Assembly: GCA_020631975.1 (NCBI GenBank)
Contig: JACKGO010000001.1
Location: 329,049 to 393,048, forward strand
Origin: Candidatus Nomurabacteria bacterium
GTDB lineage: Bacteria; Patescibacteriota; Saccharimonadia; Saccharimonadales; CAIOMD01
Reading direction: 5' to 3'
Length of the DNA: 64,000 nucleotides
In this document: piece after piece, positions 2,389 to 62,110 of the stretch
Position numbering within the stretch: the stretch's first letter is position 1
Layout: the number at the start of each line of letters is the position of its first letter
The notes under the pieces: model-generated
Told to the model about the DNA's origin: nothing
The model's database searches: none
Seen by the model: the letters and a program-made list of their open reading frames with translations, nothing else
Translations under genes and position numbers: made by a program

Positions 2389-3756
2389 TTAGCCTTTCAT
2401 CAGCGTGTCGTTAAGGATTGTTTTTATGTTTTTTGCTTCTTTATATTGTAGACCAGAATTTGTTTGCGACTTTTGTAATCGTGGACCAATAACACTTGTG
2501 AAACCCATTTTTTGGGCCTCTTGAATGCGTTTTTCTAGCCATGGTACATGTCGCACCTCTCCACTTAAACCTACTTCGCCAAACACCACAGCATCTGTAC
2601 TTAGTTGCATGCCTTTCGCTGCTGAAGCAATCGCCATGCATATAGCCAAATCGGCAGCGTTTTCAGTTATTTTTATGCCTCCAACTATATTGATATAAAT
2701 GTCTTTGTCAGAAAGCTTCAGCTTGGTTCGGCGCTCAAGCATTGCAACAAGCAAATTAAGTCGGTTTAGATCAAACCCAGATGCTGCACGCTTAGGATAG
2801 CCGTAGCTTGTTGTATTAACGAGTGCTTGTACTTCTACTAGTATTGGCCTTGTGCCTTCTAGGGTTGCGAGCACGATAGAACCGTCACTGATTTGTCGCT
2901 CTGAAAGTAATGCTGCTGATGGATTTGTAACGACATGCAGACCCTTATCGGACATCTCTAGAATGACTGCTTCGTTTGTAGAGCCGAACCTATTTTTTAT
3001 GCCTCTTAAGACGCGAAATCCTGCATATCGGTCACCCTCTAGCTGCAATACGACATCCACTAAGTGTTCAAGAACTTTTGGGCCTGCGATAGAACCTTCT
3101 TTTGTAACGTGCCCCACCAAGATAACCGCAGTATTGGACTGTTTAGCTGCCAGCGTAATCAGTTGAGCACTGTTCGTAACTTGGCTGACTGAGCCGGGCA
3201 CACCAGTGATTTCATCTGTTGCTAATGTTTGCACTGAATCGACAATAACCACATTGTATTCACCAGAAACAATCGTAGTAGCAATGTCGTTTGCGCTGTT
3301 ACTGGTTGCTATAACTACGTTTTTATCTATTGCACTGCTAATACGCTTGCCTCTCATGGCGACTTGTTCTGCTGACTCTTCACCACTTACGTATAGAAGC
3401 GAGCTAGTCTGTGCAATTGCATACGCAAGTTGTAGTAGTAACGTGCTCTTTCCTATACCAGGTTGTCCAGCTAGCAGTGTCACGCTACCATGTACTAAAC
3501 CACCACCTAACACCTTGTCTACATCAGCCACACCAACAGGTATTCTGTCTGAATGGCTGACTGCGGTCTGCTCATTGATAGTTGTTGCTTTAAGCACGCT
3601 TCCGCTATGGACTGCTTGTTGGCCTTTTGTGCTGCCACGAACGTCTAGCACTTGCTGGATAGTGTTCCAGGCGCCACACGTAGCACACTTACCACTCCAG
3701 GATCCGTATGCTTCTCCACAATCACTGCAAACATATTTTGTCTTAGCCTTTGGCAT
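2389..3756 (-). CDS. radA: DNA repair protein RadA/Sms
   Basis: N-terminal zinc ribbon CSDCGE...CATCGAWNT, Walker A GQPGIGKST, Lon-like C-terminal domain, 455 aa. Confidence 0.95.
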   Translation of the reverse strand: MPKAKTKYVCSDCGEAYGSWSGKCATCGAWNTIQQVLDVRGSTKGQQAVHSGSVLKATTINEQTAVSHSDRIPVGVADVDKVLGGGLVHGSVTLLAGQPGIGKSTLLLQLAYAIAQTSSLLYVSGEESAEQVAMRGKRISSAIDKNVVIATSNSANDIATTIVSGEYNVVIVDSVQTLATDEITGVPGSVSQVTNSAQLITLAAKQSNTAVILVGHVTKEGSIAGPKVLEHLVDVVLQLEGDRYAGFRVLRGIKNRFGSTNEAVILEMSDKGLHVVTNPSAALLSERQISDGSIVLATLEGTRPILVEVQALVNTTSYGYPKRAASGFDLNRLNLLVAMLERRTKLKLSDKDIYINIVGGIKITENAADLAICMAIASAAKGMQLSTDAVVFGEVGLSGEVRHVPWLEKRIQEAQKMGFTSVIGPRLQKSQTNSGLQYKEAKNIKTILNDTLMKG

Positions 3757-30183: not shown

Positions 30184-31170
30184 TTACATTTCTTTTACTT
30201 TTAGTGGCATCTCATGTACAACATCGTCAATATGTATTATACCTGCTTTAGCACCAATTTTACTTACAACCCGGGTAGAGTTTGCACTGGCGTAAGTCAC
30301 AGCCCATTCCAATGGTTCGCCTGCGGCTATCATCGCAGTAAATCCAGAGCTAAATGCATCACCGGCACCTGTTCTATCTACAACGGGGACGTTTTCATAC
30401 ATGCCCGCTTTGACAATGTGCCATCTATCGGCAGCCATAGCACCTTTGGGCCCATCTGTTACTACAACATAATGCACATCTTTATTCGCTGCTCTAACTA
30501 ATTCTTCTAGCGTTTCCCCTTTATATAAGCTTTGCATTTCTTGCTTATTCATAGACAAAATAGTGAGCTTAGGAATTAGTTTTTTAAGCTCTGCTTTTTG
30601 AGCGAGTTCTTTTTTGCCAGGGTTAAAAGCAATTTTTATATTATGTTGTTGTGCATATGCAAATACGGTATGTAGTACTTCAAAGTTACCATCTAAGCTT
30701 GTTAAATAGATCCATTCTGGTTTAGTGTCATGAAAATCTGCTGTTTTTATACTGTAGTGAGCGCTGGCACCCCTATAGGCTAAAATAGTCCGCTCGCCAC
30801 TTGGGGCTAATAATATACAACTAAAACCACTGCCATAGCCGTTGTTAGACAGCCCAACGAGGCTCGTGTCTACACCATCTTTGTGTAAATCATCCAGTAT
30901 CGCTCGCCCTGCAACATCATCACCTACCTTACCCAAATACATCGCGTGCAAGCCTTGGCGGGCAAATGTTACAGAGGCATTGGTTGCACCTCCGCCCGTA
31001 CTAAATATTACGCCGTCAATATCGTTTTTAGAACCGAGTTCGAACTCTTCTATCATATCGCCATCGCAGTCTTTGTGCGGTTTAAAGATTTTACCTTGCA
31101 AAAATACATCTTGCACAGCTGCTCCGACAGATAAGATTCGGGTATGTTTTCTATGTTCGTGTTTGCTCAT
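30184..31170 (-). CDS. PfkB-family carbohydrate/nucleoside kinase
   Basis: The PfkB signature DRTGAGDAFSSGF is present. The start is ambiguous (ATG 31170 or 31194). Confidence 0.8.
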   Translation of the reverse strand: MSKHEHRKHTRILSVGAAVQDVFLQGKIFKPHKDCDGDMIEEFELGSKNDIDGVIFSTGGGATNASVTFARQGLHAMYLGKVGDDVAGRAILDDLHKDGVDTSLVGLSNNGYGSGFSCILLAPSGERTILAYRGASAHYSIKTADFHDTKPEWIYLTSLDGNFEVLHTVFAYAQQHNIKIAFNPGKKELAQKAELKKLIPKLTILSMNKQEMQSLYKGETLEELVRAANKDVHYVVVTDGPKGAMAADRWHIVKAGMYENVPVVDRTGAGDAFSSGFTAMIAAGEPLEWAVTYASANSTRVVSKIGAKAGIIHIDDVVHEMPLKVKEM

Positions 31171-31276
31171 AATATACAGGGTCCAGTATACCATTTATGC
31201 TTATCGCCGCCTAGCCTGGTTGGTATATGAAACGTTTTTAATATAGGCTATAGACTGCTACAAACAAAACGAAACA

Positions 31277-32506
31277 CTAGCTATTGTTTTGCTCTTCGAA
31301 CTCAGCTGCCATCGTAGGGTTACCACGCGTGAGCTTCTTTACTGTTAACTCTTCTGCTTTATTGTTAGCAATGCGTAAATTATCTTCTGAGCGCAATAAG
31401 TTATCTTTGGTTTTTTGCAATTGAGCAATAGATTTATCGATACTATCGATGGCTGTTTTAAATTTCTCGGACGCGAGCCTATAGTTTCTGCCAAACGATT
31501 CACGAAAATCATTAAGCTGACCTTCAAAATTAGTGACATCAATGTTTTGGGCCTTAACAAGTGCTAATTCTGATTTATATGCAAGTGAATGTCGTGCAGC
31601 GTTACGCAATAAGGTAATGATGGGTATAAAAAATTGCGGCCGAATAACATACATTTTTTGGTATTTGTAAGAAACATCCACAATGCCGCTATTATACAAC
31701 TCGCTTTCGCTTTCTAGCAGCGTCACAAGCACAGCATACTCACATTTCTTTTCAGTGCGATCTTTGTCGAGTTCGCGCAGAAAATCCTCGTTTTTGTGTT
31801 TCGTGGCAGTCTCGTCACCTTCGTTCTTCATTTCGAACATTATCGAAATGATTTCAGTGCCATTTTCGTCAGAATCACGGTAGATGTAATCACCCTTGCT
31901 ACCACTTGAAACATCGTTATCTTTTTCAAAATAAGCGTTCTGGAACGCCGTTGCGCGGAGTTTATTAAATTCTGTTTCGCAGTGTTGTTCCAGCGTTTCT
32001 CCCACCATCTTAGTAGATAGTTTCGCTTTCATATCTTTATAGTAGGCAATCATTTCATCTTTGCTCTTAAGTTCGGATTCGTATTTATCTTTAAGCGAGG
32101 CTTTTAACAGCTGGGCTTCATGGTCTTTGCTTTTTAGTTGGTTTACAAGATCATCGCGCTGTTTTTCTATGGCGTGAACTGCGTCTGTTAGGGCAAGCTT
32201 TTTTTCTGTTTCAGTGTTTTCTAACTTTGCTTGCATACGGGTAATTTTCGCTTCTGCATCGGCTTTAAGTTTTGCTAGTTCGGCATCTTTTTTGGCAGAT
32301 TCTGCTATGAGAGCATTTTGTGCTTTTTGTTCTGCCAGCTTAACTGCATTTTCTTTTTCTTTTTCTAGCAGTGCTAAGCGTTCGTGTAGTTCTTTATTAA
32401 ATTCATGATTTCGGACTTGCTGCACAATATCAGCAAAACCTGCTTCATCTATGGTGAAGGCTTTTTTACAATGGGGGCAAATAATCTCATTCACTATATA
32501 CTCCAT
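31277..32506 (-). CDS. DUF2130-like protein: N-terminal zinc ribbon, long coiled coil, C-terminal nuclease-like domain
   Basis: CPHCKKAF at the N-terminus, then about 150 aa of K/E/A-rich coiled coil, then a C-terminal ...D...FEMKNE (D..ExK-like) motif. Confidence 0.7.
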
Positions 32507-32672
32507 TTCGTGTTACTCAATGTTTGCTACACAATGTCGTGGTACACAAACATTCTTCTATGTAGTATGGCATAGTTTGGGCGTGAATGTTTTATCAATG
32601 GTATCGTGTGCAACCTTTAACTTTTCTAGATAAACTGTGGCAGTGGGTACGAGTCGCATCGTCTAATCTTGC

Positions 32673-32708
32673 ACGCTATATGTAGCGTACCGACGCTACC
32701 TGTAGCGT
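32673..32708. promoter_or_regulatory. Tandem pair of 16-bp palindromes ACGCTA-N4-TAGCGT (candidate operator pair)
   Basis: ACGCTAtatgTAGCGT is at 32673-32688 and ACGCTAcctgTAGCGT at 32693-32708, with centres 20 bp apart. They lie just downstream of the fba stop (32717). Confidence 0.55.
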
Positions 32709-32716
32709 GGATGTAC

Positions 32717-33634
32717 TTAATAGTGGGCTTTGCCTATAGAATTGTAGCTCGCCAGTTTGGTTTCTACGACGGTCTGAACAGCACCATAAACTTCTGGCAT
32801 GAGTTTTACAACGGCGTATTCATCTGGATTTTCACGCAAGACCTTTTCTAAGGTGTCACGGAAGGCGCGGCGCATATCGCTGTTAACATTAATCTTCGTA
32901 ACTCCTGCCCGAACAGCTTCTTCGTAAAAATGAGCCGGCGTGCCACTGCCGCCATGTAAGCTAATGTTAGTGTTTCTTGGTAAGGCTTTTCTGATACGTT
33001 CTAGCAGAGCGATATCTAACGTTTTTGGTACCGGGTAACTGCCGTGTAAATTACCAATAGCAGCCGCATATGTGTCTATGCCAGTATCTTTTACAAACTT
33101 TTCGGCACCACGTGGTGTACTAAATGTTTTTTTAATATCAGCGTAATCAAAAGCCTCTTTGTGCACGTTACTGCTGCCACCAAAGTAATGGGGTTCGCTT
33201 TCTACAATTGCACCAGTGAAGGTTGCATAACGAACAACTTCCCTAGTAGCAATTATTATTTCATTATCTGTTGCGTTGTGATTAGCTTGGCTAACATCTA
33301 TATGAATAAATTCAAATCCGGCATCTATACCCGCTTTGGCAGTTTCTACAGATGGGCTATGATCTAGGTTAATATACATTTCTATGCCAAATTCTTGCTT
33401 GTAATTATCTACCATATCGCGCACGTTCATGAGCCCCATTGCTTCTACTTCGCCATGGCTGACCTCTACCATAAGTGGCGCTTGTAGTTTTTGAGCAGCT
33501 TTTGCAACCGCAATAAGCGTTTCTTGGTTATCTATATTAAACGCACCTACAGCAAATTTCTGGACTCGTGCATTGGCCATTGTTTCGCGTGCTTTAGTAC
33601 AGTTTTGTCTTATTTGTTGTATTGTATGTCCCAT
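32717..33634 (-). CDS. fba: Class II fructose-bisphosphate aldolase
   Basis: YAVGAFN-type N-terminus (FAVGAFNIDN) and the motifs HLDHS-like INLDHS, SLHGGSG and NVNSDMR. Confidence 0.88.
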   Translation of the reverse strand: MGHTIQQIRQNCTKARETMANARVQKFAVGAFNIDNQETLIAVAKAAQKLQAPLMVEVSHGEVEAMGLMNVRDMVDNYKQEFGIEMYINLDHSPSVETAKAGIDAGFEFIHIDVSQANHNATDNEIIIATREVVRYATFTGAIVESEPHYFGGSSNVHKEAFDYADIKKTFSTPRGAEKFVKDTGIDTYAAAIGNLHGSYPVPKTLDIALLERIRKALPRNTNISLHGGSGTPAHFYEEAVRAGVTKINVNSDMRRAFRDTLEKVLRENPDEYAVVKLMPEVYGAVQTVVETKLASYNSIGKAHY

Positions 33635-37420: not shown

Positions 37421-37864
37421 CTACAGTGAATCTAGTTCTTTGTTGCGCCTAATAAAGCGCGGTGCATTCGCAAACGGTGTCGTCAGAAATTCGTCTATTA
37501 TTGCGTATACTTCTTGGGGATTGGTATCGTATAGTTCCGCAGGTATCGCGAGTACGTTCGCGTCTTCATCGTTACGAACGCCACGGGCTGCCGCGCGGCT
37601 CCAACCTAACCCTGCACGTATACCTTTAATACGATTTGCAGCCATAATCATTCCTTGACCACTACCACATAGTAAAATTGCTCGCGAATCGGTATTAGTC
37701 AGCACGCTACTTGTAGCCTTCGCTGCAAATACAGGAAAATCATCTGTAGGATCATATCTGTCATCACCACTATCGGTAGTGTCATAACCGCGTTTTTTTA
37801 GATATGTAATAATCGATTCCTTAGCGGTGAAGCCACGATGATCAGCTGCTACAAATAGCTTCAT
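37421..37864 (-). CDS. rpiB: Ribose-5-phosphate isomerase B
   Basis: RpiB/LacAB pattern (ADHRGF, LLCGSGQGM); 147 aa. Confidence 0.85.
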   Translation of the reverse strand: MKLFVAADHRGFTAKESIITYLKKRGYDTTDSGDDRYDPTDDFPVFAAKATSSVLTNTDSRAILLCGSGQGMIMAANRIKGIRAGLGWSRAAARGVRNDEDANVLAIPAELYDTNPQEVYAIIDEFLTTPFANAPRFIRRNKELDSL

Positions 37865-41270: not shown

Positions 41271-41732
41271 TTAAGATGGCATTTCTTTGTTAGACAGTGC
41301 AGTAATAACGCTATAATAACCTTGTATGGCAGCCTTATCGGTACCTGCTAGCCATGGAGCAGTCGCTTTTTTTAGTTCACCTTCAATAACGCACGCTTTT
41401 TCTAGACCATCACTCGTCATGAGTACTCGTCGTGCGCGCTTATCTTTTGGATCGTCTATGCGAATGAGCCAACCTGTATGTTCGGCTTTGTGTACTAAAT
41501 TAGTAATAACAGGCATTTCTACACCGAGCGTTTTTGCAAGCTCTGAAATTCTAATACCATCTTTACCTGCATCTATCGCCGTACCTATAATAAGCCACTC
41601 TGTAATGGTAATGGTGTACTTTTTGAGTGTACATTCCATAAAGGCACGTACTTTGCGATACGCCCGAGCTTGAGCAATAACTGTTTGGTAAGTAGTGATT
41701 TGTCTATAAGGCACTACTATATTATTTAACAT
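41271..41732 (-). CDS. MarR-family transcriptional regulator
   Basis: Winged-helix pattern (ISELAKTLGVEMPVITNLVHKAEHTGWLIRIDDPKDKRARRV). It is the last gene of the nrdH-like/trxB run. Confidence 0.8.
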   Translation of the reverse strand: MLNNIVVPYRQITTYQTVIAQARAYRKVRAFMECTLKKYTITITEWLIIGTAIDAGKDGIRISELAKTLGVEMPVITNLVHKAEHTGWLIRIDDPKDKRARRVLMTSDGLEKACVIEGELKKATAPWLAGTDKAAIQGYYSVITALSNKEMPS

Positions 41733-41771
41733 TATTAAGTAAATATTGCAACTAGTTACTGGGCTGAACGA

Positions 41772-42692
41772 TTATTTCTTAAGCGTTTCTAGGTATTCGC
41801 GAATACGCAGCGCCGCTGTTGCGCCTTCTCCGACGGCAGTAGCTATCTGCATGGTAGCCCCACTCCGTACGTCCCCTGCCGCAAATACACCAGGAAGTGA
41901 CGTTTCTAAACGGTCATTTGTCTTAACAAAACCAATCTCATCAAGCTCGATGTCTTTGCCTAAAAATTGAGTATTCGGCTTTAAGCCTACAAATACAAAT
42001 ACACCATCTGTCTGAAATGTCACTTGTTTATTTGCTTTTTTATCGGTGCCTTTAACGGCTGTTACTTTGCTGCCATCACCAATAATTTCATCTGTAGTTG
42101 TGTTCATGTGAACGGTAATCTGCTTATTTTTCTCTAGTTCGTGCAGCAGCACATCTGATGCCCTAAAGACATCGCTGCGTACCAATAGATCTATATGGCT
42201 CGCAAATTTAGTCAAAAACAGTGCTTCTTGTACGGCAGAATTACCACCGCCAACAACAATAATCTTTTTGTCGCGATAAAAAGCGCCATCACATGTTGCA
42301 CAATAATGAACACCCCGCGACAAGTACTCAGCCTCACCAGGTATACCAAGTTTTTTGTACTCGGTCCCAGTGGCTATCAAGACTGCCTTGGCGCGCCGCT
42401 CACCACTAAACGTATCGAGTACCACTACATCACCTTCTTTGCGTATGTTGCTGACCTCGTCTAGCTCTATTTTTGCACCAAAACGCTCGGCTTGTTTACG
42501 TAAATTTTCGGCTAAATCTAACCCACTTATGCCTTCTGGAAACCCCGGATAGTTGTCTATCCAGTCTGTCGTTGCGGCGAGCCCACCTATAACCGCTTTT
42601 TCTAATAATACTGTGTCAATATCTTCGCGGGTCGTGTATACAGCTGCAGTTAAAGCAGCTGGGCCGGCCCCAATCATGAGTATGTCTTGCAT
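41772..42692 (-). CDS. trxB: Thioredoxin-disulfide reductase
   Basis: GAGPAALTAA, the redox-active CATCDG motif and GGGNSAVQEA; 306 aa. Confidence 0.92.
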   Translation of the reverse strand: MQDILMIGAGPAALTAAVYTTREDIDTVLLEKAVIGGLAATTDWIDNYPGFPEGISGLDLAENLRKQAERFGAKIELDEVSNIRKEGDVVVLDTFSGERRAKAVLIATGTEYKKLGIPGEAEYLSRGVHYCATCDGAFYRDKKIIVVGGGNSAVQEALFLTKFASHIDLLVRSDVFRASDVLLHELEKNKQITVHMNTTTDEIIGDGSKVTAVKGTDKKANKQVTFQTDGVFVFVGLKPNTQFLGKDIELDEIGFVKTNDRLETSLPGVFAAGDVRSGATMQIATAVGEGATAALRIREYLETLKK

Positions 42693-42701
42693 GTGTTACC
42701 T

Positions 42702-42950
42702 CTACGCAACAGCTGGGGCTAGTTTGGCAATATTATAACCAACCACAACTTCTTGCGTGTCATCCTGTTTAGTTATTACGGTCACTGGTACCGCCATCTG
42801 ACCACTTATTGTAAACGCCTCTTGAGCTCTGTCTGGCTGTTCGTCGATATTTACTTCTGTATATGCAAGGTTTTTGCTTGCTAACCACTTTTTGACCATA
42901 ACGCAATAGGCGCAGGTAGTGGTTGTATAAATTGTAATTTCTTTTGGCAT
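42702..42950 (-). CDS. Glutaredoxin-like protein (NrdH/YruB-like), CAYC active site
   Basis: 82 aa; ITIYTTTTCAYCVMVKKWL thioredoxin-fold N-terminus. Confidence 0.75.
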   Translation of the reverse strand: MPKEITIYTTTTCAYCVMVKKWLASKNLAYTEVNIDEQPDRAQEAFTISGQMAVPVTVITKQDDTQEVVVGYNIAKLAPAVA

Positions 42951-42995
42951 AGGATCCTTTTTAAAATGCTAATTACTTTACTTTGTATAGTTAGT

Positions 42996-43024
42996 ACTAT
43001 AGCGCAGGCAAGGGGCGTTGTCAA
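42996..43024 (-). promoter_or_regulatory. Strong sigma-70-type promoter of the nrdH-like/trxB/marR operon (-35 TTGACA, 17 nt, -10 TATAGT)
   Basis: On the minus strand TTGACA is at 43024..43019 and TATAGT at 43001..42996. The SD AAAGGA precedes ATG 42950. Confidence 0.7.
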
Positions 43025-43040
43025 CGCTATATATAGCGTT
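43023..43040. promoter_or_regulatory. 18-bp perfect palindrome AACGCTA-TATA-TAGCGTT (same ACGCTA-N4-TAGCGT motif), abutting the -35 box
   Basis: Read directly from the sequence. It overlaps the -35 hexamer by 2 nt and starts at the last base of the FKBP stop codon. Confidence 0.6.
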
Positions 43041-43585
43041 TATTGGCCAACTTTTATAAGCGTAACGTCAAATACTAAGTCTGAATTTGCAGGGATGAGT
43101 GGGGATGGACTTTGTTCTCCGTATGCTTTTGCTGCCGGTATGTATAATCGGCGCTTGCCTCCCTCTTTCATGCCAGGAATTCCCTCTTGCCAGCCAACAA
43201 TCACTTGTCCGAGGCCAAATGTAGCTGGTTGACCACGATCTATGGAATTATCAAATCCAGCACCAGTTGCAGCTAGTACTCCTACATAGTCTACGGTGAC
43301 GGTATCACCTGGCTTAGCTTCTGCCCCTGTGCCAACAACAAGATCTTCTGTTTTTAGCTCTGGTACGCTCGCGACTGGTGAAAAGCCTTCAATTTGCCTT
43401 TGTTCTTGCACTTGTTGTTCCTCCTTAGATTGTTGAGTTAATTTATCTAGCTCTTCTTGGCTAATAGTCTGTGCATCGTCTTGACTAGAATTAGCATAGA
43501 TTGCATAGGCTGTTACACCAACAGTAGTCCCTACAAATAGTAGCGTAATGAGCAATATGCCGACCCTTTGGGCTGTTTCTGACAT
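43040..43585 (-). CDS. FKBP-type peptidyl-prolyl cis-trans isomerase, N-terminally membrane anchored
   Basis: FKBP_C pattern (GDTVTVDYVGVL..G..FDNS.......F.LG.VI.GW.EG..GMK.GG.R.L.IP); SD GAGGGAAGGA. Confidence 0.85.
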   Translation of the reverse strand: MSETAQRVGILLITLLFVGTTVGVTAYAIYANSSQDDAQTISQEELDKLTQQSKEEQQVQEQRQIEGFSPVASVPELKTEDLVVGTGAEAKPGDTVTVDYVGVLAATGAGFDNSIDRGQPATFGLGQVIVGWQEGIPGMKEGGKRRLYIPAAKAYGEQSPSPLIPANSDLVFDVTLIKVGQ

Positions 43586-50613: not shown

Positions 50614-50686
50614 TCGGGGTGGCAGGAATTGAACCTACGCTCCCGGCGCCCAACGCCAGAGCTCTACCAAACTGAGCTACACCCCG
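50614..50686 (-). tRNA. tRNA-Pro (anticodon UGG), CCA not encoded
   Basis: Hand-folded cloverleaf. Acceptor CGGGGTG/CACCCCG; D arm GCTC-AGTTTGGTA-GAGC; anticodon stem CTGGC/GCCGG with loop GTTGGGC (U33, UGG, G37); T arm GTAGG-TTCAATT-CCTGC; discriminator A. Confidence 0.92.
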
Positions 50687-61030: not shown

Positions 61031-62110
61031 ATGAGTTCTAAAGTACAATCCTCACCCATAAATCAAAAAGTAATCATCACTGCCGTTATTATTAGCGTGA
61101 TATGCTTAATGCTATTTTTGCAAAACTATTTTATATTAATTACGCTTGCTGCAATTTTAGCCTTTTTATTTAACCCTATATATAGGTGGTTTTTAGTTAA
61201 GTTTAAGGACAGAAAAGGTAGCGCGGTGAGTATGACTGTAGTCGTAATGTTTATTACAGTTGCTATACCCGTTTCACTGCTCATCACGGTAACGGTAGCA
61301 CAGGCAATAGAGTTGGTAAATAATATACAATCTACTACTTCTACTGGTTCATTTTCTGATGCTGTAGACAATGCAGTCAATAGTTTAAACGATCAGGCTG
61401 CAAGATTACCATTTGTATCTACTAACCCTCTTAGCTCCGATAAGGTTATAAGTTGGCTGCAAGATAATGCATCGACAATTATTAATACTTCGGTAGACTT
61501 AATTAAAGGTTTCGCTGGAGGGATAGCAAACTTCTTTACCATGCTCATTATCTTTCTGTTTGTGTTTTCTTCTTTATTAAAAAACCAAAAGGAATTAATG
61601 AAGATGCTCAATGAAATTAACCCTCTAGGTGAAACACTCAATAAATTATACCTAAAAAGAATGGGAGACATGACCTCTGCAATGGTGAAAGGTCAGTTTG
61701 CCATAGCTGTAGCACAAGGTTTGTCTGGAACACTTTCTCTTTGGATAATTGGGTTTGACTACCTGGCATTTTGGTTCTTTTTATTAACGTTCCTTTCTAT
61801 CATTCCTTTAGGCGGGGGCATTATATTAATACCTTTAGGTATTGTTTTAATACTAACCGGTAATGTTTGGCAAGGGGTATTTCTCTTAGCATGGCACTTT
61901 ATCATTACGACAAATATCGATAATATAATGAGACCTAAATTTGTCCCTAAAAGTGCACGAATGGACCCGGCTCTTACAATATTATCTGTTTTTGCAGGAA
62001 TAGGTATATTTGGGTTTCTTGGTATTGTTATAGGTCCAGTTATTATGATTGTAATCTTATCAACAATTCAAATATACCTAGAATATAAGCGCAAGTATAT
62101 GAAAGCTTAA
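61031..62110 (+). CDS. AI-2E family transporter (second paralog)
   Basis: Multi-TM protein of the AI-2E family. ATG at 61031 preferred over the ORF-track GTG at 61025. Confidence 0.8.
   Translation: MSSKVQSSPINQKVIITAVIISVICLMLFLQNYFILITLAAILAFLFNPIYRWFLVKFKDRKGSAVSMTVVVMFITVAIPVSLLITVTVAQAIELVNNIQSTTSTGSFSDAVDNAVNSLNDQAARLPFVSTNPLSSDKVISWLQDNASTIINTSVDLIKGFAGGIANFFTMLIIFLFVFSSLLKNQKELMKMLNEINPLGETLNKLYLKRMGDMTSAMVKGQFAIAVAQGLSGTLSLWIIGFDYLAFWFFLLTFLSIIPLGGGIILIPLGIVLILTGNVWQGVFLLAWHFIITTNIDNIMRPKFVPKSARMDPALTILSVFAGIGIFGFLGIVIGPVIMIVILSTIQIYLEYKRKYMKA

Follow-up and report, generated by a model that had tools for sequence, protein, structure and literature searches.

A helically phased tandem pair of probable NrdR boxes between fba and a variable gene slot in a Patescibacteria genome

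In a 64,000-nucleotide (nt) stretch of the genome of Candidatus Nomurabacteria bacterium (Patescibacteriota, Saccharimonadia; contig JACKGO010000001.1), hereafter the window, two copies of a 16-bp palindrome lie in tandem between fba, the gene of a class II fructose-bisphosphate aldolase, and a gene of the uncharacterised DUF2130 family (positions 32673-32708; Table 1). Our results indicate that these palindromes are very probably boxes for NrdR, the repressor of ribonucleotide reductase (RNR) genes; the full statement, i.e., that they form a tandem NrdR-box pair with a regulatory effect on the downstream gene, we consider likely, with a lesser degree of confidence. Direct support was obtained for the identity of the motif, for its helical phasing, for its association with nrdD and nrdR across the phylum, and for the conservation of both sites of the window in related species.

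The palindrome ACGCTAnnnnTAGCGT occurs in three exact copies in the window, starting at 32673, 32693 and 43024. An earlier note on this DNA had described three exact, intergenic copies, and our exact scan gave the same count at the same kind of position, with no match to the pattern ACGCTANNNNTAGCGT in 100 dinucleotide-preserving shuffles; with up to two mismatches, 9 sites were found in the window against 3.15 expected. The tandem arrangement and 20-bp spacing proposed there are likewise borne out by the coordinates, with 8 nt between the fba stop codon (32717-32719) and the nearer box, and 166 nt between the proximal edge of the pair and the annotated DUF2130 ATG (32506). The genes around the pair and the third box are all on the minus strand, on which box 32673-32688 is the promoter-distal, downstream member of the pair. 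Regarding weaker sites, the one at 37704, inside rpiB and with a single mismatch (11/12), has no conserved counterpart in five relatives and probably arose by chance, and a site at 61173, inside an open reading frame (ORF) for a membrane protein, was also treated as chance; no third, weaker box in phase with the pair rises above background within +/-160 nt of it.

The NrdR box is a 16-bp partial palindrome with highly conserved C4, A6, A8, T9, T11 and G13, as defined by mutagenesis (PMC13584703), and NrdR requires two such boxes, usually 15-16 bp apart (PMC13584703, PMC12051234). Boxes 32673 and 43024 carry all six of these core positions and box 32693 carries five; the CAGG centre of the latter, as in box 2 of E. 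coli nrdAB, is identical to that of the functional E. coli nrdAB box GTACTACAGGTAGTCT (PMC13584703 Table 1). The pair resembles those of E. coli nrdAB, nrdHIEF and nrdDG, S. coelicolor nrdRJ and nrdAB, and L. monocytogenes nrdDG in its 16-bp boxes, in the conserved positions and in the placement of both boxes on one side of the helix.

The occurrence of such pairs was surveyed in one genome per species (185,579 species), requiring two exact boxes separated by 0-30 bp. The scan yielded 55 loci, where chance expectation is far below one match, and 50 of them belong to Saccharibacteria, Saccharimonadia or other Patescibacteria, a count that includes metagenome-assembled genomes (MAGs) without a taxon name, which we grouped with Patescibacteria. 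The remaining five correspond to two proteobacterial loci, one from Bacteroidota, one unclassified, and a 24-bp tandem repeat of a spirochaete. Among the 50 loci, start-to-start spacing was 20-21 bp (n=9), 30-33 bp (n=27) or 39-43 bp (n=14), with no other value within the allowed 16-46 bp. These classes correspond to 2, 3 and 4 helical turns, which fits the integer-helical-turn rule described for NrdR boxes (PMC12051234, bioRxiv 10.1101/2025.03.28.645925). The four central bases were left free in the search, and positions 8-9 read AT in 85 of 102 boxes (83%) against about 6% by chance. We conclude that in Saccharibacteria the NrdR box takes the form ACGCTA-tATa-TAGCGT, sharpened with respect to the general consensus: its arms are fixed as ACGCTA/TAGCGT (G3/C14), unlike the ACAC(T/A)A with A3/T14 of the latter.

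The neighbouring genes point in the same direction. RNR-related genes form by far the largest group of neighbours, with a pair 36-170 nt ahead of such a gene in 10 of the 50 loci; we estimate their share in a genome of about 1000 genes at well below 1%. Full-length NrdD is encoded beside the pair in L018, L030, L043, L050 and L055 (NCBIfam NF005497; 1078 bits in L030), a 147-aa protein resembling the C-terminus of NrdD is encoded there in L007, L010, L012 and L029, and nrdR itself lies 59 nt from the pair in L004, a Saccharimonadia MAG locus (TIGR00244, 191 bits against a cutoff of 125; Pfam Zn_ribbon_NrdR and ATP-cone), by which NrdR is encoded at the level of this lineage. As for the two proteobacterial pairs, L008 is located upstream of nrdD and L033 upstream of the gene for the large subunit of a class I RNR. 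Outside the selected pairs, a single further box of at least 11/12 was found in 340 kb of the genomes carrying them, and none in 524 kb of control loci. The boxes are thus a small regulon rather than a dispersed repeat; a repeat of the repetitive extragenic palindromic (REP), miniature inverted-repeat transposable element (MITE) or DNA-uptake-sequence type is ruled out by the low copy number, and linkers and flanks vary among copies. We read the motif as an NrdR box because spacing, centre, neighbouring genes and rarity of the 50 loci all agree. In the paper library that was searched, no paper linking NrdR with Saccharibacteria or Patescibacteria was found.

The third box of the window directly abuts the FKBP stop codon (43040-43042), and overlaps by one base the -35 hexamer of a promoter that heads the operon of a glutaredoxin-like protein, the thioredoxin reductase TrxB and a MarR-family regulator (Table 1). 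The identity of trxB is given by NCBIfam TIGR01292 (353.8 bits against a cutoff of 343.45), and the glutaredoxin-like (NrdH/YruB-like) protein falls below all NCBIfam cutoffs. In the three relatives compared at this site (L149, L150 and L151, with 88, 88 and 78% TrxB identity), the box is kept at the same place, overlapping the FKBP stop and abutting TGACA, and reads ACGCTACATATAGCGT, GCGCTATATATAGCGT and ACACTATATATAGTGT, respectively; the last of these equals the universal NrdR consensus, via a symmetric G3A/C14T change. Further, a half-box lies over the -10 element, its start 34 bp downstream of that of the full box; its sequence is GCGCTA or ACGCTA in the window, L149 and L150, and L151 has GCACTA alongside the change of G3 to A in the full box. 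This half-box is probably a degenerate second box, and the matching G-to-A changes in L151 fit an operator co-evolving with one protein. The earlier note had favoured a protein operator over a terminator and had suggested that the pair might share a regulon with this site, and both proposals gain from these results, as the third box abuts the -35 of a promoter with 11/12 consensus positions, is kept in three relatives, and presents the same motif upstream of the glutaredoxin-like/trxB operon. As a member of the same NrdR regulon, the lone box would repress the glutaredoxin-like/trxB/marR promoter by occupying its -35 region; a thioredoxin/glutaredoxin system is a plausible RNR reductant, in which case its membership in the regulon would make sense.

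The candidate regulator of the earlier note was the MarR, encoded at 41271-41732, which would control its own operon via box 43024 and the fba/DUF2130 junction via the pair. Palindromes of about this length are bound by MarR proteins, the operon behind box 43024 ends with marR, and box and marR occur together in all four related species examined. However, the MarR of the window has no homologue in any of the 55 exact-pair loci, the co-occurrence being confined to the glutaredoxin-like/trxB/marR operon of close relatives; the motif has the positions of the universal NrdR box, which L151 matches literally; exact matches to the pattern are also found in Proteobacteria, ahead of nrdD (L008) and of a class I RNR gene (L033); and the exact pairs of Patescibacteria show NrdR-type helical phasing and are enriched beside nrdD and nrdR. 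The assignment to MarR is therefore not upheld, and we regard it as very improbable. Regarding the other genes of this operon, several close relatives (P0130, P0134, P0136, P0137 and others) encode a glutaredoxin domain fused N-terminally to TrxB, in proteins of 387-402 amino acids (aa), and L149 combines such a fusion (2501-3697) with a separate small glutaredoxin gene upstream.

The NrdR operator explanation has also to be weighed against an element acting at the RNA level, in which the arms would fold in the fba mRNA and terminate it or stabilise its 3' end, the resemblance to NrdR boxes being immaterial at this site. The fba stop lies 8 nt before the pair and the FKBP stop is contiguous with box 43024, a location right after stop codons that these G+C-containing palindromes share with intrinsic terminators and REP-like palindromes; nested 7-bp stems are predicted in a 91-nt region, with a minimum free energy of -22.8 kcal/mol; about 7 pairs elsewhere lie between convergent genes; and in one of them (L042) the box with its flanks and TTTTTT resembles a genuine intrinsic terminator. 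However, this energy does not stand out from that of shuffled sequences (z = -0.99), and the absence of a U-tract after the pair, stated in the earlier note, agrees with the terminator scan, which returned nothing with a T tract at the pair, so that the site does not fit a Rho-independent terminator despite the possible hairpin. Rfam families are represented in the window by a single tRNA (50614-50686), and the region 32450-32760 gave no match even with the threshold relaxed to E <= 1. Moreover, an RNA element gives no reason for spacings of 2, 3 and 4 turns or for the 83% AT at the loop centre; termination at the boxes found inside mnmA, 90-150 nt before its stop codon, would truncate the mRNA; and no hairpin follows fba in relatives that have no gene inserted after it. 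Variation among relatives is informative in the same sense: box 1 of L147, GCACTA...TAGCGT, comes closer to the universal consensus and would leave an A-C mismatch if a stem were formed, and the pair variants of L147 and L143 retain C4, A6, T11 and G13, i.e., the NrdR contacts, rather than hairpin pairing. Unlike terminators and REP elements, the boxes of the window combine the lack of a T tract with very low copy number, strict phasing and a conserved AT centre. We consider an RNA-level function improbable.

Comparison with related species indicates that the pair marks a position rather than a gene. Contigs of the same species carry an identical fba/pair/DUF2130 arrangement, and seven related species were compared (L142-L148; fba 84-91% identical). 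In L142, L144, L145 and L146, pfkB directly follows fba, with neither DUF2130 nor a box, and L143, L147 and L148 carry other genes behind fba, in some cases in the interval up to pfkB: L143 has a 156-aa ORF, among others, L147 a DUF1861-like gene and NmrA, and L148 a 213-aa ORF and LPG synthase. The slot (31195-32716 in the window) and its equivalents in L142-L148 thus constitute a hot spot of gene turnover, with four different cargoes or none. L147 holds the pair GCACTACCTGTAGCGT-CGGT-ACGCTAGATCTAGCGT 8 nt past the fba stop, with 20-bp spacing and the CGGT linker of the window; L143 holds ACGCTACAGGTAGCGC-TACT-ACGCTATGGCTAGTGC right after the fba stop, again with 20-bp spacing; and L148 retains a decayed remnant. 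When window, L147 and L143 are aligned, homology covers the end of fba as well as the two boxes and breaks off directly after box 2. The right edge of the slot is the promoter of pfkB itself, whose extended -10 element TGGTATACT is conserved in the window, L142, L144, L146, L147 and L148. On this comparison, the pair is the fixed left border of a variable slot, with DUF2130 as the cargo of this species. The pair belongs to the position and not to DUF2130, because 80 metagenome loci of this gene (56-71% identity, mixed G+C) have no exact box anywhere, by which DUF2130 is rejected as a conserved NrdR target, and because none of the other loci retrieved for comparison contains a homologue of the 166-nt leader. 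Foreign base composition was also considered for DUF2130, and its G+C (0.39) and G+C at third codon positions (GC3, 0.37) are not distinctive; a defence or mobile-element cargo was rejected as well, as PADLOC gave no match for DUF2130 or the alternative cargo genes, for which Pfam recognised only the DUF1861 of L147. At the other border, the pfkB ORF start at 31194 reads the TGGTATACT of the promoter as codons, and relatives start at MSKHEH; the true start is probably 31170, giving 328 aa.

Such a border raises a structural or recombinational explanation, in which the two close palindromes, possibly as a cruciform, would mark or create a hot spot of cassette exchange after fba, any NrdR binding being incidental or a relic. 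The point at which homology ends, the four cargoes together with four relatives devoid of both cargo and pair, and the decayed remnant of L148 are all in line with it. Conversely, the other border shows no integrase, transposase or repeat of the pair and consists of nothing but the pfkB promoter, the copy number of the boxes in the genome is low, and both boxes of the pair remain perfect (12/12) in this species, which argues for continuing selection. We consider this explanation unlikely, if somewhat less so than an RNA element; it is, besides, compatible with an NrdR operator.

How an NrdR operator would act at this site can be proposed from known mechanisms. NrdR is a repressor with a Zn-ribbon and an ATP-cone that forms, with dATP and ATP, a tetramer able to occupy two boxes and block RNA polymerase; with ATP alone it forms oligomers that do not bind DNA (PMC9110341). 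At high dATP, NrdR would bind the fba pair and, once bound, would limit transcription into the variable slot, here occupied by DUF2130. This transcription would start at an unrecognised promoter or come from the long operon leading into fba (gap-rpiB-rpe-tkt-EamA-fba), whose read-through NrdR would hinder as a roadblock. Nucleotide-dependent repression of the transcription of the slot gene is most likely the function of the pair; we infer the binding of NrdR to it, the binding mode on a pair with a 4-bp linker, and the transcript affected. The 166 nt to DUF2130 are not disqualifying, because about 157 bp from box 2 to the start codon are documented at a genuine NrdR site, that of L. monocytogenes nrdAB (PMC12051234). 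The spacing of 20 bp, about 2 turns, follows the integer-turn rule of NrdR operators, and the 2-turn class is real in the phylum, as shown by 9 of the 50 exact pairs plus those of L143 and L147. In contrast to the pairs of RNR operons, with linkers of 15-16 bp (3 turns), the pair of the window has a 4-bp linker (2 turns), no nearby RNR gene and no overlapping promoter; a location at the promoter of an RNR operon or of nrdR, found at 10 of the 50 loci in the phylum, does not apply to it. The 2-turn pairs in the nrdD promoters of L018 and L043 have further in-phase boxes 40-95 bp away, of which the pair of the window has none; a third in-phase box does occur at those two promoters, and also in the mnmA of L039 and L026.

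Several observations weigh against a regulatory NrdR pair at this site. Spacers of 12-27 bp have been tested, with binding shown for 14-18 and 24-27 bp, the classes of 3 and 4 turns (PMC12051234), and the 4-bp linker of the window falls outside both ranges. The two DNA-binding sites of the tetramer are 80 Å apart, suited to three turns (PMC9110341), and 20 bp of straight B-DNA extend by our own arithmetic about 68 Å, so that one tetramer probably cannot touch both boxes. A consensus scan of both strands gave no sigma-70-like promoter within about 150 nt of the pair, in agreement with the earlier note, which had found no convincing one; the only regional match (TTGAGT-16-TATAGT, 32520-32493) was rejected, as it overlaps the DUF2130 start codon and would leave no usable start. 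Neither nrdR nor RNR genes, nor synteny leading to them, were found in the window, and nrdR was not located in this species. No phased pair lies within 500 nt upstream in the 80 metagenome DUF2130 loci, about 7 of the 50 pairs lie, in other genomes, between convergent genes, where a promoter is not expected, and one box of such a pair (L042) doubles as the stem of a T-tract terminator. Finally, in E. coli and P. aeruginosa phased pairs occur only at RNR operons (bioRxiv 10.1101/2025.03.28.645925).

Departures from canonical spacing and location are known in other bacteria. The long-spacer NrdR sites of Streptococcus (25-26 bp linker, PMC12051234) are, like the pair of the window, one whole turn off the canonical spacing, and their 4-turn class is also present in the Patescibacteria set (14 of 50 pairs); unlike them, the pair of the window is one turn shorter, and the assays used spacers of 12-27 bp. 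The lone box 43024 resembles the single non-RNR boxes of Pseudomonas topA and Shewanella dnaA, which are of doubtful function, no non-RNR gene with more than one box being reported (bioRxiv 10.1101/2025.03.28.645925); in contrast to these single boxes, a perfect phased pair stands at a non-RNR position beside fba. Other non-RNR phased pairs in Saccharibacteria lie upstream of queA, rnhA and rpsL. NrdR is regarded as dedicated to RNR, and a conserved 2-turn pair at a non-RNR position together with the mnmA pairs suggests a wider NrdR regulon in this phylum. We therefore propose, tentatively and at somewhat less than even confidence, that NrdR has been recruited beyond RNR in Saccharibacteria (fba junction, mnmA 3' end, queA, rnhA, rpsL, glutaredoxin-like/trxB), including a two-turn architecture with linkers of 4-5 bp. 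If this were true, two-turn pairs would imply another binding mode, i.e., two tetramers, a higher oligomer or roadblock action, and a single nucleotide-sensing repressor would be a broader growth regulator in minimal, host-dependent genomes. The motif family is well known, and it is the spacing, position and phylum-wide pattern described here that extend the knowledge on NrdR; the fba pair provides a natural system in which to study how box spacing is read by NrdR oligomers, and ACGCTA-tATa-TAGCGT a sharply defined operator motif for annotating regulation in Patescibacteria.

Table 1. Coordinates of the boxes, neighbouring genes and promoter elements of the window, and of the boxes embedded in mnmA in comparison loci.
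Feature	Position	Strand	Details
NrdR-type box	32673-32688		ACGCTATATGTAGCGT; minus strand ACGCTACATATAGCGT; exact match; 6/6 core positions
Linker	32689-32692		ACCG, minus strand CGGT; 4 bp; boxes 20 bp apart centre to centre and start to start
NrdR-type box	32693-32708		ACGCTACCTGTAGCGT; minus strand ACGCTACAGGTAGCGT; exact match; 5/6 core positions
Third NrdR-type box	43024-43039		ACGCTATATATAGCGT; exact match; 6/6 core positions
fba, class II fructose-bisphosphate aldolase	32717-33634	-	Pfam PF01116, E=3e-59
Non-coding stretch, pair to DUF2130 start	32507-32672	-	166 nt; no recognisable promoter, RNA family or homologue elsewhere
DUF2130 gene	31277-32506	-	Pfam PF09903, E=6e-90; PD-(D/E)XK superfamily, included in a survey of that superfamily (PMC3424549); uncharacterised
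Extended -10 element, promoter of pfkB	31185-31193	-	TGGTATACT; right edge of slot
pfkB-type kinase	30184-31194	-	ORF
FKBP isomerase	43040-43585	-	ORF
Sigma-70-type promoter of the glutaredoxin-like/trxB/marR operon	42996-43024	-	TTGACA-17 nt-TATAGT; 11/12 consensus; conserved in relatives
Half-box (probable degenerate second box)	42990-43005	-	GCGCTA; overlaps -10; 34 bp start to start from full box
Glutaredoxin-like/trxB/marR operon	41271-42950	-	Pfam
Glutaredoxin-like protein	42702-42950	-	Pfam
Thioredoxin reductase	41772-42692	-	Pfam
MarR-family regulator	41271-41732	-	Pfam
mnmA-embedded boxes, L011	3941-3976
mnmA-embedded boxes, L016	4069-4114
mnmA-embedded boxes, L019	4455-4512
mnmA-embedded boxes, L023	2445-2502
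mnmA-embedded boxes, L026	243-289
mnmA-embedded boxes, L039	2709-2775
mnmA-embedded boxes, L048	1824-1881
mnmA-embedded boxes, L049	6026-6072

Further observations were made in the surveyed loci. In eight species, the 3' part of the mnmA reading frame contains two or three in-frame NrdR boxes, which encode T-L-(H/Q)-(I/V)-A strands of the C-terminal barrel, and a loop of variable length holds them at 20, 30-31 or 42 bp; the gene that follows is alaS in seven of these eight loci and ftsA in L049. Likewise, a perfect pair with 20-bp spacing lies in frame inside an RlmD/TrmA-like methyltransferase gene (L041, 1023-1058), 415 nt from its start and 920 nt from its stop, with no downstream gene nearby. 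Among the pairs between convergent genes, those of L003 (5906-5954), L005 (7089-7147) and L036 (927-974) share extra flanks, ...gttcgg..tgttcgg before the pair and ccacc/cactATATATTATAT(A/G)TA after it, which suggests an unannotated NrdR-controlled promoter or small transcript. In L042 (507-522), an NrdR-type box is lengthened by its flanking bases (aaaaacgACGCTAGCAGTAGCGTcgtttttt) and followed by TTTTTT, resembling a bidirectional intrinsic terminator.

Two observations concern proteins of the RNR system in this phylum. Proteins of about 147 aa with only the glycyl-radical C-terminus of NrdD (RITGY...) are encoded on the plus strand of L007 (901-1344), L010 (1670-2128), L012 (4562-5011) and L029 (5788-6222), each 36-60 nt downstream of a 3-turn NrdR box pair; from their sequence, they look like a GrcA/YfiD-style spare-part radical domain for the class III RNR of Saccharibacteria. 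The NrdR of L004 (6584-7078, minus strand) presents a glutamate at the residue that, aligned by eye, probably corresponds to D15 of S. coelicolor NrdR, and R17 is retained. D15 and R17 are the two base-reading residues of the S. coelicolor protein (PMC9110341), and the change of D15 to glutamate might be linked to the preference of this phylum for G3/C14 boxes.

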